Source: Escherichia coli O157:H7 (lineage in GTDB: Bacteria > Pseudomonadota > Gammaproteobacteria > Enterobacterales > Enterobacteriaceae). Taken from it: DNA of 6,675 bases. Position numbers and translations under genes: made by a program. Where the stretch lies: assembly GCF_013167455.1 (NCBI RefSeq), contig NZ_CP038331.1; one strand, written 5' to 3'. Position 1 is the first letter of the stretch; every line of letters begins with the position of its first letter. The notes beneath the pieces were generated by a model. That model had not been told where the DNA came from. It saw only the letters and a list, made by a program, of their open reading frames with translations, and did not search any database. Below, in pieces: positions 3,876 through 5,811 of this stretch.

Positions 3876-4223
3876 ATGATACCGGTGAAACGCGAAAGGA
3901 TGCTCACGATACGGGTCACGGATGAGGAACATGCGCGGCTGCTGGCACGTTGTGAGGGAAAACAACTTGCGTCATGGATGCGTAAGGTCTGCCTGGGTGC
4001 ACCGCCATCGAAAACGTCAGGTCTTCCGACACTGGCACCGCCGCTGTTGCGCCAGTTCGCTTCGGTCGGCAATAACCTGAATCAGATAGCCCGGAAGATA
4101 AACAGCGGACACTGGTCGGGGCATGACCGGGTTCATGTGGTGGCTGCACTGATGGCCATCGGACGTGAACTGAGTGAGCTGAGGGATGAGGTCCGTAAAC
4201 AGGGAGAACGGGATGATAGTTAA
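3876..4223 (+). CDS. mbeC: MbeC/MobC-family relaxosome accessory protein (115 aa; alternative start at 3900 gives 107 aa)
   Basis: GGAGG at 3865-3869, 6 nt before ATG 3876. Contains the conserved NLNQIARK motif and the ...VVAALMAIG... segment of ColE1-type MobC proteins. Divergent from rom and overlaps the mbeA start by 11 nt. The internal ATG at 3900 (MLTIRVTDEE) may be the true start by analogy to ColE1, but its AGGA abuts the ATG. Confidence 0.85.
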   Translation: MIPVKRERMLTIRVTDEEHARLLARCEGKQLASWMRKVCLGAPPSKTSGLPTLAPPLLRQFASVGNNLNQIARKINSGHWSGHDRVHVVAALMAIGRELSELRDEVRKQGERDDS

Positions 4224-5811
4224 GTTTCATGCCAGGGGAAAAGGCGGTGGCAGTGGTCCGGTTGATTACCTGCTGGGCCGGGAGCGTAACCGGGAAGGGG
4301 CGAGAATTCTGCGGGGTGATCCCGAAGAGGTGCGGGAACTCATCGATGCCACGCCGTTTGCGAAAAAATACACCTCGGGGGTTCTGTCTTTTGCAGAGCA
4401 GACACTGCCACCGGGAGAGCGTGAAAGGGTGATGGAGAGCTTTGAGCGGGTACTGATGCCCGGTCTTGAAAAAAATCAGTACAGCATCCTGTGGGTGGAG
4501 CACCAGGACAAGGGGCGTCTTGAGCTGAATTTTGTCATCCCGAATATGGAGCTGGTGAGCGGAAAACGGCTCCAGCCCTATTACGACCGGGCGGACCGTC
4601 CGCGAATCAATGCCTGGCAGACACTGGTGAATCACCATTACGGGCTGCACGACCCGAACGCACCGGAGAACAGGCGGACACTTGTCACCCCGAATAATCT
4701 GCCGAAAGCGAAACAGGAGGCCGCAGAAGCGATTACGAGGGGACTGGAGGCTCTTTACCATGCTGGAGCGCTAAAAACGCGTCAGGATGTCACTGAGGCG
4801 CTTACAGCGGCAGGTTTTGAGGTGGTGAGGACAACCAGGAGCAGTATCAGTATCGCCGACCCGGAGGGCGGGCGTAATCTCAGGCTGAAAGGGGCGCTGT
4901 ATGAGCAATCTTTTACAAATGGGGACAGACTTCGAGAAGAAACTGAAAGAGCGTGCCGTCTCTACAGAGAACATGCTGAACAGCGAGTTCAGGAAGCTCG
5001 AAGCGTCTGTAGACAGGGAACTGAACTTAAACGGGCAGAAAATCAGAGACGCTATCAGCGCACACACAGCAGCGGTGAAAGAACAACTGGAGACGCTGAA
5101 CAGTGCCGTGAACGCGCAGTTCAGCGCCACAGAGAACGAACTTGCCCGGCGGCAGGAAGAGCTGCTCTGGAAGCTGGTCAAAGGGCGGATACTGTACCCG
5201 TCGCTGACGGCGCTTTGCGTCACGGTCGGGATTTTTCTGGCGTCATGGGGGCTGATTCAGTGGCAGGAAAGCCGTATTGCGGCGAACATCCTGGCTATCA
5301 GGGACCAGGAAGAGACGCTGGCGAAACTCCGGGAAAAAACATGGGGTGTGACGTATCACGAGGGCAGGAACGGGAAATTTCTGGTGTTGCCGTCCGGGGT
5401 GAAGGGGGAAAACAACTGGACGGTGGAGAAGAAGAACGCAGTAAGACTGGTCAGGGAGTAAGTGAGTATGACAGAGCTGGAAATGCACTTACTGAACGCC
5501 TTAGAGCAATTGCAGCAGGACTATACGCAGCGGCTGAAAGACTGGGAGAGCGCCTTCACGGATTTGCAGCATATGTTCGAGCTGACACGACAGGAGAACG
5601 GGCAACTGAGGGAACAGTGCGACGGCTTGAGTCAGCAGGTGCAGAGATTAGCCGGGCAGGTGGACCGCTTGAGTCGGTTATTTATCACGAACAGCAGATA
5701 AGGGATGAACAGGAAAGGCAGGCACGCCTGGAACGGGAGCGTGCGCGGTCCTGGCATGAAGAGCAGGAACGGGAAGCACGGGTATGGCGTGGCCCGTCAA
5801 TGGGGATGTGA
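4213..5811 (+). CDS. mbeA: MbeA-type relaxase (532 aa), ColE1/MOBP5(HEN) family
   Basis: AGGGAG at 4201-4206, ATG at 4213 (the supplied ORF starts 27 nt earlier at an in-frame ATG with no Shine-Dalgarno). N-terminus MIVKFHARGKGGGSGPVDYLLG with Tyr19 (TAC 4267-4269) and the HEN motif WVEH97QDKGRLE104LN106 (His codon 4501-4503), matching ColE1 MbeA catalytic residues as I recall them. Low-complexity R/G/E/A-rich C-terminal half where mbeB and mbeD are nested. Confidence 0.9.
   Translation: MIVKFHARGKGGGSGPVDYLLGRERNREGARILRGDPEEVRELIDATPFAKKYTSGVLSFAEQTLPPGERERVMESFERVLMPGLEKNQYSILWVEHQDKGRLELNFVIPNMELVSGKRLQPYYDRADRPRINAWQTLVNHHYGLHDPNAPENRRTLVTPNNLPKAKQEAAEAITRGLEALYHAGALKTRQDVTEALTAAGFEVVRTTRSSISIADPEGGRNLRLKGALYEQSFTNGDRLREETERACRLYREHAEQRVQEARSVCRQGTELKRAENQRRYQRTHSSGERTTGDAEQCRERAVQRHRERTCPAAGRAALEAGQRADTVPVADGALRHGRDFSGVMGADSVAGKPYCGEHPGYQGPGRDAGETPGKNMGCDVSRGQEREISGVAVRGEGGKQLDGGEEERSKTGQGVSEYDRAGNALTERLRAIAAGLYAAAERLGERLHGFAAYVRADTTGERATEGTVRRLESAGAEISRAGGPLESVIYHEQQIRDEQERQARLERERARSWHEEQEREARVWRGPSMGM
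4901..5461 (+). CDS. mbeB: MbeB-type mobilisation protein (186 aa), nested within mbeA in the +1 frame
   Basis: AAAGGGG 6 nt upstream of ATG 4901. Protein has a hydrophilic coiled N-terminal part and a hydrophobic segment (LYPSLTALCVTVGIFLASWGLI), consistent with MbeB/MobB. Entirely inside the mbeA coding region in a different frame, the known ColE1 arrangement. Confidence 0.8.
   Translation: MSNLLQMGTDFEKKLKERAVSTENMLNSEFRKLEASVDRELNLNGQKIRDAISAHTAAVKEQLETLNSAVNAQFSATENELARRQEELLWKLVKGRILYPSLTALCVTVGIFLASWGLIQWQESRIAANILAIRDQEETLAKLREKTWGVTYHEGRNGKFLVLPSGVKGENNWTVEKKNAVRLVRE
5468..5701 (+). CDS. mbeD: MbeD-type mobilisation/entry-exclusion-like protein (77 aa), nested within mbeA
   Basis: ATG 5468 follows the mbeB stop (5459-5461) by 6 nt; AGGGAG at 5453-5458. 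Same frame as mbeB, inside mbeA. The MTELEMHLLNALEQLQQDY... coiled-coil-like sequence resembles ColE1 MbeD as I recall it. The supplied ORF begins at GTG 5462. Confidence 0.75.
   Translation: MTELEMHLLNALEQLQQDYTQRLKDWESAFTDLQHMFELTRQENGQLREQCDGLSQQVQRLAGQVDRLSRLFITNSR

Follow-up and report, generated by a model that had tools for sequence, protein, structure and literature searches.

In the MOBQ plasmids RSF1010 and R1162, mobB, an accessory gene for mobilisation, lies inside the relaxase gene mobA in another reading frame, an arrangement that resembles the nesting found in mbeA; the RSF1010/R1162 system is unlike MbeA in having a 3-His motif III, a single nested gene and a relaxase-primase fusion. 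In ColE1 (NC_001371), mbeA occupies 2180-3733, mbeB 2868-3386 and mbeD 3393-3626. MobB and mobD have been described as internally encoded in mobA (PMC9282650, PMC5935869, PMC6118388), earlier publications also point out the nested mobB and mobD of Helicobacter plasmids, and a passage of PMC2831885, citing Yamada 1995, attributes entry exclusion to ColE1 mbeD. In relaxases of the MOB_HEN type, motif III is His-x6-Glu-x-Asn (HEN), which replaces the 3-His motif (PMC12857230).

The stretch of DNA analysed here (the window, 6675 bp) is a complete circular colicin D plasmid with 99.7% identity to pDEC4E-3. Complete 6675-bp ColD plasmids that are 99.7% identical to the window are typed in PLSDB as mobilizable, MOBP. 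The RNAI antisense regulator was found at 2654-2759 on the minus strand (Rfam RF00106, 54.7 bits against a threshold of 47), and a Rop family protein is annotated (rop, 3641-3832). We read the region as the mob operon that a colicin D plasmid of the ColE1 family carries: mbeC is followed by mbeA, whose +1 frame contains mbeB and mbeD. We put the probability of this reading at about 0.93. The features of the locus are as follows.

3470-3640, minus strand: bom / oriT region of the ColE1 type, 171 nt, 97% identical to ColE1 1441-1611
3491-3503, minus strand: nic-site sequence GTATACTGG|CTTA, the single exact match in the window
3900-4223, plus strand: mbeC, relaxosome accessory protein of the MobC / RHH family (Pfam MobC and NikA-like; RefSeq agrees)
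4201-4206, plus strand: Shine-Dalgarno-like AGGGAG for mbeA, duplex energy -8.2 kcal/mol
4213-5811, plus strand: mbeA, MOB_HEN relaxase of 532 aa, ATG at 4213, TGA at 5811 (NCBIfam, Pfam; mbeA in RefSeq)
4213-4899, plus strand: stretch of mbeA coding in one frame only (residues 1-229), with the relaxase domain and a small domain after it, pLDDT mostly 70-95
4888-4894, plus strand: Shine-Dalgarno-like AAAGGGG for mbeB, formed by MbeA codons K226-G227 of an R-L-K-G motif
4901-5461, plus strand: mbeB, +1 frame, 186 aa, ATG at 4901, TAA at 5461, nested in mbeA (Pfam MbeB_N)
5065-5481, plus strand: predicted disordered linker of MbeA, codons 285-423, AF2 pLDDT about 30
5453-5458, plus strand: Shine-Dalgarno-like AGGGAG for mbeD in the final mbeB codons, -7.7 kcal/mol
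5468-5701, plus strand: mbeD, +1 frame, 77 aa, by family a mobilisation/exclusion protein, ATG at 5468, TAA at 5701 (Pfam, NCBIfam)
5702-5811, plus strand: single-coding C-terminal tail of mbeA, with the conserved terminal motif GPS(L/M)G

The gene order is that of ColE1. In both plasmids the mbeB start lies in the +1 frame, 688 nt from that of mbeA, mbeD begins 6 nt past the mbeB stop, and neither nested gene reaches the end of mbeA. The two plasmids share the catalytic residues (Y19 and H97/E104/N106) and the nic sequence, and their bom regions are 97% identical. Alignment of each protein with its ColE1 counterpart gave identities of 75% for MbeC, 59% for MbeA, 46% for MbeB and 64% for MbeD. 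The two plasmids differ in the lengths of MbeA (517 aa in ColE1, 532 aa here) and MbeB (172 and 186 aa), in the mbeD start codon (GTG in ColE1, ATG here) and in cargo (colicin E1 and colicin D, respectively), and the window plasmid has no exc1/exc2 downstream of cer. The first-pass annotation, made from the sequence alone, had placed mbeB (4901-5461) and mbeD (5468-5701) wholly within mbeA in the +1 frame and had called this the known ColE1 organisation and not a novelty. Coordinates and frames were confirmed, and the nested organisation of mbeB and mbeD is indeed already known, both from ColE1 and from the literature on internally encoded mobB/mobD; it represents no new biology.

The bom region lies between rop and the replication origin, as fits a bom/oriT of the ColE1 type. 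The full nic sequence, GTATACTGGCTTA, was found at 3491-3503 on the minus strand; a match to this 13-mer arose in only 1 of 200 shuffles, and the identical 13-mer is also present in ColE1 and several related loci. A 23-nt pBR322-type nic-region pattern had no match in the window even with 3 mismatches: the 13-nt core matches, and the sequence 3' of nic departs from the pBR322-type pattern. The site had initially been labelled pMB1-like. A bom is present, but it is equally close to ColE1, so a pMB1-only label is too narrow and 'ColE1/pMB1-type' is the safer wording. MbeC scored above threshold with both Pfam MobC (PF05713, 46.2 bits versus 23.2) and NikA-like (PF21983, 34.4 versus 27); its gene is directly upstream of mbeA, and the final 11 nt of mbeC overlap the mbeA start.

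MbeA matched NCBIfam NF047848 (relax_MbeA_E1) with 714.2 bits against a cutoff of 500, over profile positions 1-491 of 497. This model is decisive for the assignment, the match to Pfam Relaxase (PF03432) being marginal (27.3 versus 24.6 bits). All four catalytic residues proposed for MbeA were located. The column of Tyr19 (motif I) is invariant across 16 relaxases, as is H97, while conservation of E104 and N106 is 90% or more in the same set. AF2 models residues 31-150 with pLDDT of 85-95, and the best Foldseek match in the PDB was 2ns6, the relaxase domain of MobA from R1162 (probability 1.00, E 5.6e-4), followed by NES, TraI and MobM. The model therefore suggests that MbeA has an HUH-type relaxase fold.

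With these catalytic residues in place and all three frames open, the mob operon appears intact, as had been claimed. We also considered a decayed remnant, intact-looking but non-mobilising, for instance through a mismatch of bom, MbeC and MbeA after recombination. ColE1-family mob regions are indeed mosaic, both in our sequence comparison and in PMC2831885. Yet frameshifts and premature stops are absent, the NCBIfam model is covered nearly end to end, the bom is almost that of ColE1, and PLSDB holds at least 37 near-identical plasmids (at least 80% coverage; the 30 listed are at least 99.2% identical) from human, cattle and environmental strains. Decay is therefore extremely improbable.

The products of both nested genes belong to curated families. 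MbeB matched Pfam MbeB_N (PF04837) with 84.3 bits against 22, its residues 1-52 aligning to profile positions 1-52. AF2 predicts a long helix with one transmembrane-like segment (residues 101-119, Kyte-Doolittle 1.94) followed by a small beta domain, at a mean pLDDT of 80. MbeD matched Pfam MbeD_MobD (PF04899) with 122.9 bits against 21.6 (residues 1-70 on profile positions 1-70) and the NCBIfam equivalog NF033829 with 123.5 bits against 60. Each gene had been credited with its own Shine-Dalgarno sequence, and we located candidates for both, AAAGGGG before mbeB and AGGGAG before mbeD. Predicted anti-Shine-Dalgarno duplex energies for the mbeA, mbeB and mbeD sites range from -7.0 to -8.2 kcal/mol; energies of -6 are reached by only 15% of all plus-strand ATGs in the window. 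Upstream of mbeB, a CTGAARGGRGC motif is kept in 15 of 16 loci, and among the MbeA residues around this site R224 and G227 are invariant and L225 nearly so. Two further ORFs were considered as equivalents of mbeE, one at 5705-5974 (+1 frame, 4 nt after the mbeD stop) and one at 5839-6060. Neither had a Pfam or NCBIfam match, and no conserved counterpart at their position was seen in ColE1. An mbeE equivalent is absent from the plasmid; mbeE is non-essential according to cited work.

We then compared the layout across relatives. The closest distinct mob lineage found, that of 4.6-kb ColE1-like plasmids from Salmonella (for example NZ_CP149402, locus L005), has an MbeA 79% identical to that of the window, MbeB and MbeD of equal lengths and an overlap without indels, at about 17% nucleotide divergence and with other cargo. 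The offset of the mbeB start, 688 nt, is the same in all 11 Enterobacterales and Aeromonas veronii loci. Distant MOB_HEN operons, those of Helicobacter (pHel4-like), Campylobacter, Moraxella, Acinetobacter and Aeromonas pAsa1, share with the window a relaxase with HEN-type motif III and two tandem +1 ORFs, which begin 688-715 nt into the relaxase gene and terminate ahead of its stop codon; their relaxases are only 23-32% identical to MbeA and their nested ORFs are longer. Altogether the two-ORF +1 layout was present in 15 of 15 intact relaxase relatives, from Enterobacterales, Aeromonas, Acinetobacter, Moraxella, Campylobacter and Helicobacter, so that no intact homologue lacking the nested ORFs was encountered. 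The 16th locus, N. gonorrhoeae pJD1, has a frame-shifted relaxase and still carries an MbeB homologue. Nested start codons are preceded by a Shine-Dalgarno sequence in most loci, and in every locus analysed ORF1 has one transmembrane-like helix. No nested ORF of the five distant loci exceeded the Pfam thresholds for MbeB_N or MbeD_MobD, and phmmer gave a clear MbeB match only for pAsa1 ORF1 (9e-11); homology in these loci is therefore proposed on the basis of position, frame and architecture. The nested pair in these distant branches is largely unannotated and missed by current Pfam models: four of the five loci have no annotation of it in the PLSDB gene tables, and pAsa1 lists hypothetical proteins.

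Whether open frames of this length could arise by chance was addressed by a stop test, in which synonymous codons were resampled with the proteins of one frame held fixed. With MbeA fixed, the expectation for the +1 frame of the window is about 5.7 stops; 2 were observed, and two or fewer arose in 3.5% of shuffles (p ~0.035). Given the composition of MbeA, the open +1 frame in the window alone is thus only mildly surprising, and current RefSeq annotation omits both genes; mbeB and mbeD might on these grounds be taken for chance by-products of a hydrophilic, G/A-rich mbeA and not genuine genes here. The strength of the case for the nested ORFs comes instead from the conservation of the layout in other loci. 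Two ORFs with the same start offset recur in every intact relative, including the AT-rich Campylobacter and Helicobacter, where 8-15 +1 stops are expected, and for all five distant loci the shuffle test gave p <= 0.01. The constant transmembrane-like helix of ORF1, the curated family matches, the treatment of both as genes in the literature (PMC9282650, PMC5935869) and the substitution pattern described below point the same way, and we give the chance explanation almost no credence.

The converse test bears on the mbeA frame. With MbeB and MbeD fixed, 2000 resamplings gave a mean of 16.5-19.6 mbeA-frame stops in the window (one value from each of two codon-usage tables; minimum 7) and none was observed; across 16 loci, about 13-35 are expected and none was observed in any of the 16. 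The mbeA frame itself is strongly selected to stay open. The substitution pattern changes along the gene. Third-position excess is strong in the unique N-terminal part of mbeA and flattened in the overlap, mismatches at codon positions 1/2/3 being 0.20/0.14/0.48 in the unique part and 0.30/0.27/0.33 and 0.35/0.29/0.32 in the overlaps. Relative to the Salmonella locus L005, residues 1-229 show a dN/dS of 0.04 and mismatches of 0.06/0.03/0.34. In four close pairs, naive per-frame dN/dS, in which overlapping frames are not independent and counts are small in three of the four pairs, was below 1 in the nested frames, where it was also smaller than the mbeA-frame value for the same stretch: 0.15-0.50 versus 0.36-2.4 for mbeB and 0.23-0.55 versus 0.36-0.85 for mbeD. 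Over the whole mbeB overlap, global amino acid identity per frame (0.36 for mbeA, 0.34 for mbeB, 0.30 for the third frame) barely separates the frames because the block is too divergent and indel-rich for this measure; close pairs, sub-segments and stop-codon statistics were used in its place. Both frames are maintained.

The overlapped part of MbeA had been described as low-complexity and R/G/E/A-rich, as expected when the other frame is under selection. The composition stands: residues 230-497 contain 51.9% R+G+E+A and 16% hydrophobic residues, versus 36.7% and 25.8% in residues 1-229. Disorder in the AF2 model is restricted to residues 285-423, and the proposed cause fits approximately that segment only. 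No other block of MbeA aligns as poorly. The segment overlies MbeB from its middle through the transmembrane part to the C-terminal part, and it partly coincides with a block, sharply delimited, in which ColE1 and pVR50D diverge. The ends of the overlap, by contrast, are helical and conserved: AF2 confidently models a helix for the first ~55 overlapped residues, over MbeB_N, and MbeA over mbeD carries a conserved DRAG..AER.RA...GL motif.

The collapse of MbeA sequence conservation after about residue 290, together with the predicted disorder, would also be expected if relaxase function were confined to the N-terminal ~290 residues and the long mbeA frame through mbeB and mbeD were non-functional read-through, leaving three tandem genes. 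An mbeA-frame dN/dS near 1 in the mbeB overlap in three of four close pairs and the interrupted relaxase frame of pJD1 could be taken in the same sense. Such read-through would not account for the complete absence of mbeA-frame stops in all 16 loci, nor for the conservation of MbeA over mbeD. AF2 helices extend across residues 418-525 with pLDDT up to 88, and the unique C-terminal tail is under purifying, mostly third-position substitution (0/35, 1/36 and 11/36 at the three codon positions, ColE1 versus pVR50D) and ends in a GPS(L/M)G motif common to nearly all enterobacterial relatives. A short relaxase is therefore very improbable, and we retain the reading of a full-length mbeA that contains mbeB and mbeD.

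By homology to ColE1, MbeC and MbeA would assemble at the upstream bom/oriT, where MbeA would nick the transferred strand at GTATACTGG|CTTA via Tyr19 and the H97/E104/N106 metal site; the plasmid would then be transferred by way of a secretion system that a conjugative plasmid in the same cell supplies. From what is known of the family, independent ribosome starts at internal mbeA sites would yield three proteins from one stretch. The putative mbeB start site is made of MbeA R-L-K-G...Y-E codons, with AAAGGGG followed by the ATG inside TAT GAG, and that of mbeD sits in the final mbeB codons. Of the nested products, MbeB is predicted to be a membrane protein with a single pass, and MbeD to be a small coiled-coil protein of mobilisation/exclusion. 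The overlap is probably tolerated by placing most of MbeB opposite the hydrophilic, R/G/E/A-rich, predicted disordered MbeA linker (285-423), in which U is rare at codon position 2 and +1 stops are therefore few; at the two ends of the overlap both frames are constrained.

The breadth of the layout, 15 loci from Enterobacterales to Campylobacterota, raises the thought that a +1-frame pair of membrane and coiled-coil proteins, encoded across the disordered linker of the relaxase, is an ancient, family-wide trait of MOB_HEN relaxases, combined with a sharply bounded hypervariable block that serves as a helper-specificity cassette; taken as a whole, we consider this proposal unlikely. The variable block, at mbeA nt ~780-1190, spans the linker of MbeA along with the transmembrane segment and C-terminus of MbeB; that it might be exchanged as a cassette and so tune the choice of helper secretion systems is conjecture.

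RefSeq annotates either mbeA or else mbeB/mbeD, never all three. Gene-content and pseudogene surveys of small plasmids will therefore miscount mob genes. The locus is a textbook case of a long same-strand gene overlap, with about 800 nt coding in two frames. Judged from its sequence, the colicin D plasmid should be open to mobilisation by conjugative plasmids that share its host. Its occurrence in many E. coli lineages of human, cattle and environmental origin fits this, and the number and varied sources of its near-identical relatives fit a plasmid that spreads.

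The genes mbeB and mbeD both lie wholly inside the relaxase gene mbeA in the +1 frame, and every coordinate proposed in the first-pass annotation was reproduced. mbeA runs from the ATG at 4213 to the TGA at 5811 (532 aa), mbeB from the ATG at 4901, 688 nt into mbeA, to the TAA at 5461 (186 aa), and mbeD from the ATG at 5468 to the TAA at 5701 (77 aa); the mbeA stop is downstream of both nested ends. The catalytic residues expected of MbeA, Y19 and the H97/E104/N106 motif, are all present. Each nested gene also has a Shine-Dalgarno (SD)-like motif of its own where an SD had been claimed for it. 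Duplex energies with the anti-SD sequence were -7.0 to -8.2 kcal/mol for the three starts; only 15% of the plus-strand ATGs of the window reach -6. The mbeB and mbeD start codons are supported by Pfam alignments that begin at residue 1 (MbeB residues 1-52 onto MbeB_N positions 1-52; MbeD residues 1-70 onto MbeD_MobD positions 1-70) and by homologues starting with MS.LL (MbeB) and MTELE (MbeD) at matching places. The 171 nt around the nic sequence are 97% identical to the ColE1 bom, and every membership test that could be run was positive.

Start and transfer signals of the mob region
3491-3503, minus strand: nic sequence GTATACTGGCTTA, by sequence match
4201-4206: SD-like AGGGAG of mbeA, purine-rich motif upstream of the start
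4888-4894: SD-like AAAGGGG of mbeB, purine-rich motif upstream of the start
5453-5458: SD-like AGGGAG of mbeD, within the last codons of mbeB

The window is a complete circular plasmid of 6675 bases. At least 37 E. coli plasmids in PLSDB match it over at least 80% of their length; the matches listed (30) are 99.2-99.8% identical to the window and 6.7-13 kb in size. In the PLSDB typing, the matching plasmids are mobilizable and have a MOBP relaxase. Together with this typing, RNAI and the map, taken from the RefSeq annotation of the matching plasmid pDEC4E-3 (NZ_CP038400), place the nested genes in the mob operon of a colicin D plasmid of the ColE1 family.

Map of the plasmid (RefSeq pDEC4E-3 unless stated)
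25-2118: cda, colicin D gene
2115-2378: immunity gene
2448-2594: lysis gene (pDEC4E-3 annotation)
2654-2759, minus strand: RNAI (Rfam)
3641-3832, minus strand: rop
3900-4223: mbeC, MobC family
4213-5811: mbeA
6034-6180: multimer resolution site of cer type, from comparison with ColE1 3792-3938 (90% identity)
6191-6436, minus strand: hypothetical gene WP_000820629

The lysis gene start varies by annotation version (2448 in the PLSDB copy, 2472 in the current RefSeq record), and the Pfam Lysis_col alignment begins at residue 2 of the longer form. The cer-type site contains an XerCD core-like sequence, GGTGCGTACAATAAGGGGTTATGTTAAAT, from 6152, and is the part of 5812-6675 most widely common to thousands of plasmids. 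The position of ColE1 exc1/exc2, which are absent from the window plasmid, is occupied by the 6191-6436 gene; its conserved product of ∼81 aa is Arg/Glu/Ala-rich and had zero matches in Pfam and NCBIfam searches. Just 5' of cda, a palindromic stretch, tactgtacataaaaccagtggttttatgtacag (6621-6653, on through the circular junction to 25), is matched by ColE1 in both orientations; from its resemblance to the pairs of LexA (SOS) boxes that colicin promoters typically carry, it is a candidate for such a pair.

The nested arrangement is of an already known kind, in a plasmid already sequenced. mobA has been described to 'entirely' overlap two ORFs (PMC5935869), and ORFs annotated as mbeB and mbeD are overlapped by mbeA (PMC6118388). 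ColE1 itself (NC_001371) carries the same layout, as the first-pass annotation had recognized, with mbeA at 2180-3733, mbeB at 2868-3386, mbeD at 3393-3626 and an identical offset of 688 nt; the window proteins share 59% (MbeA), 46% (MbeB), 64% (MbeD) and 75% (MbeC) identity with their ColE1 counterparts. In automated annotation, the three overlapping genes never appear together (4213-5811; NZ_CP038400, NZ_CP011138, NZ_AP019766): the PLSDB copies of 2024 give MbeB and MbeD but lack MbeA, and the 2026 RefSeq versions of those records list mbeA and drop the other two. The NCBIfam model that mbeA matches, NF047848, is of the 'exception' type, and the DDBJ record AP026750 has mbeA and mbeC only.

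When the MbeB and MbeD proteins were held fixed and synonymous codons resampled 2000 times, the mbeA frame acquired on average 16.5-19.6 stops under the two codon-usage tables (minimum 7); the window has 0. The same held across loci, with 0 stops in 16/16 and 13-35 expected. In the reverse test with MbeA fixed, ∼5.7 +1-frame stops were expected and 2 observed (p ∼0.035), a weaker result because every +1 stop needs a U at codon position 2, and such U's are scarce in hydrophilic MbeA. In the window alone, the statistically striking frame is thus the open mbeA frame, and the reality of the nested frames must rest on comparison with relatives.

A tblastn search with MbeA returned 3767 plasmid records, and a spread of these was fetched. 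Homologues without the nested frames, or with unconserved ones, would have refuted the first-pass reading; the relatives analysed instead kept the layout. The two +1 ORFs are present in 11/11 Enterobacterales and Aeromonas veronii mob regions, with mbeB at offset 688 in all. Two tandem +1 ORFs also occur in all five distant relatives analysed (A. baumannii, M. catarrhalis, A. salmonicida pAsa1, C. jejuni and H. pylori), whose relaxases are 23-32% identical to the window MbeA; they begin 688-715 nt in and finish before the relaxase stop, and the first always encodes one strongly hydrophobic, transmembrane-like helix. With these relaxases fixed, 7-15 +1 stops were expected (shuffle p ≤ 0.01 in each). 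Pfam MbeB_N and MbeD searches of these nested ORFs all fell below threshold, and PLSDB gene tables give the ORFs in only 1/5 records.

Regions of the distant MOB_HEN relaxase genes with two tandem +1 ORFs
L017: 2216-3247
L019: 3204-4511
L020: 3189-3965
L021: 3192-4535
L022: 3216-4091

In N. gonorrhoeae pJD1 (L016, 336-1728), tblastn aligns residues 1-175 and 170-288 in two different frames: the frame of the MbeA-like relaxase changes near residue 170-175, which leaves an annotated relaxase of only 205-209 aa. The remainder is found in a second ORF, and this still overlaps an MbeB homologue. The pJD1 case is one of two things, a pseudogene or a frameshift.

Substitution patterns differ along mbeA. 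In its unique N-terminal 229 codons, mismatches are third-position dominated (fractions 0.20/0.14/0.48 at positions 1/2/3, all pairs) and dN/dS is 0.04 in four close pairs. The fractions are flattened to 0.30/0.27/0.33 in the first 165 nt of the mbeB overlap and 0.35/0.29/0.32 in the first 180 nt of the mbeD overlap; this lost periodicity marks dual coding. Among close pairs, variation in the overlap usually peaks at the third codon position of the nested gene. dN/dS is 0.15-0.50 in the nested frame and 0.36-2.4 in the mbeA frame for the mbeB overlap, and 0.23-0.55 and 0.36-0.85, respectively, for the mbeD overlap, values trusted for direction only because they are interdependent between frames and derive from small counts. 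The 35-codon mbeA tail past mbeD is third-position dominated again (e.g., 0/35, 1/36, 11/36 for ColE1 vs pVR50D) and closes with GPS(L/M)G, a conserved motif; from these sequence features, MbeA is evidently translated to its end.

The codons of MbeA R224 (AGG), L225 (CTG), K226 (AAA), G227 (GGG), A228 (GCG), L229 (CTG), Y230 (TAT) and E231 (GAG), at 4882-4905, read ...CTGAAAGGGGCGCTGT-ATG-AG and so contain the SD motif and ATG of mbeB. In an alignment of 16 relaxases, R224 and G227 never vary and L225 and Y230 hardly vary, and CTGAARGGRGC precedes mbeB in 15/16 loci. The most conserved local residues of MbeA thus supply the predicted ribosome-binding site and start codon of mbeB, and for this reason the 688-nt offset is fixed in the Enterobacterales and Aeromonas veronii loci examined.

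The overlapped part of MbeA had been described as low-complexity, R/G/E/A-rich sequence shaped by the other frame. The composition is as described (R+G+E+A 51.9% vs 36.7% in the unique part; hydrophobic residues 16% vs 25.8%), but the reading as unconstrained filler fits only the middle block of three parts defined from the 16-relaxase alignment and an AlphaFold2 model built on it (mean pLDDT 68.6). Residues 1-284 are predicted to be folded (pLDDT mostly 75-97), including a confident helix at 238-280 placed exactly opposite the conserved N-terminal region of MbeB. Residues 285-423 (pLDDT ∼30) are essentially unalignable and lie over the MbeB middle, transmembrane segment and small C-terminal domain. 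Helices are predicted for residues 418-525 (pLDDT 54-88), which overlie mbeD and the tail and carry a conserved DRAG..AER.RA..GL motif. Both frames are therefore under constraint at each end of the overlap. Against the PDB, the MbeA model matched the MobA R1162 relaxase domain best (2ns6, probability 1.0), ahead of NES, TraI and MobM; MbeB is modeled as one long helix (2-146, pLDDT 85-96), including hydrophobic 101-119, plus a small β domain.

ColE1 and pVR50D mbeA are 93-100% identical except in a sharply bounded block at nt ∼780-1190 (40-55% identical; ColE1 locus L004 2960-3370 vs pVR50D locus L006 1480-1890, equivalent to window ∼4990-5400). The block is inside the mbeB overlap and spans most of the predicted disordered MbeA linker and the MbeB middle, transmembrane and C-terminal parts; judged from the alignment, it looks like recombinational cassette exchange, giving a mosaic.

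PMC5935869 goes no further than calling MbeB a relaxosome or accessory component, and ColE1 mbeD is reported to mediate entry exclusion (PMC2831885). By homology to ColE1, MbeC (RHH/MobC) and MbeA would form a relaxosome at bom, where MbeA would nick between GTATACTGG and CTTA via Tyr19 and the HEN metal site (HEN as defined in PMC12857230), and the DNA would then pass through the type IV secretion system of a helper plasmid.
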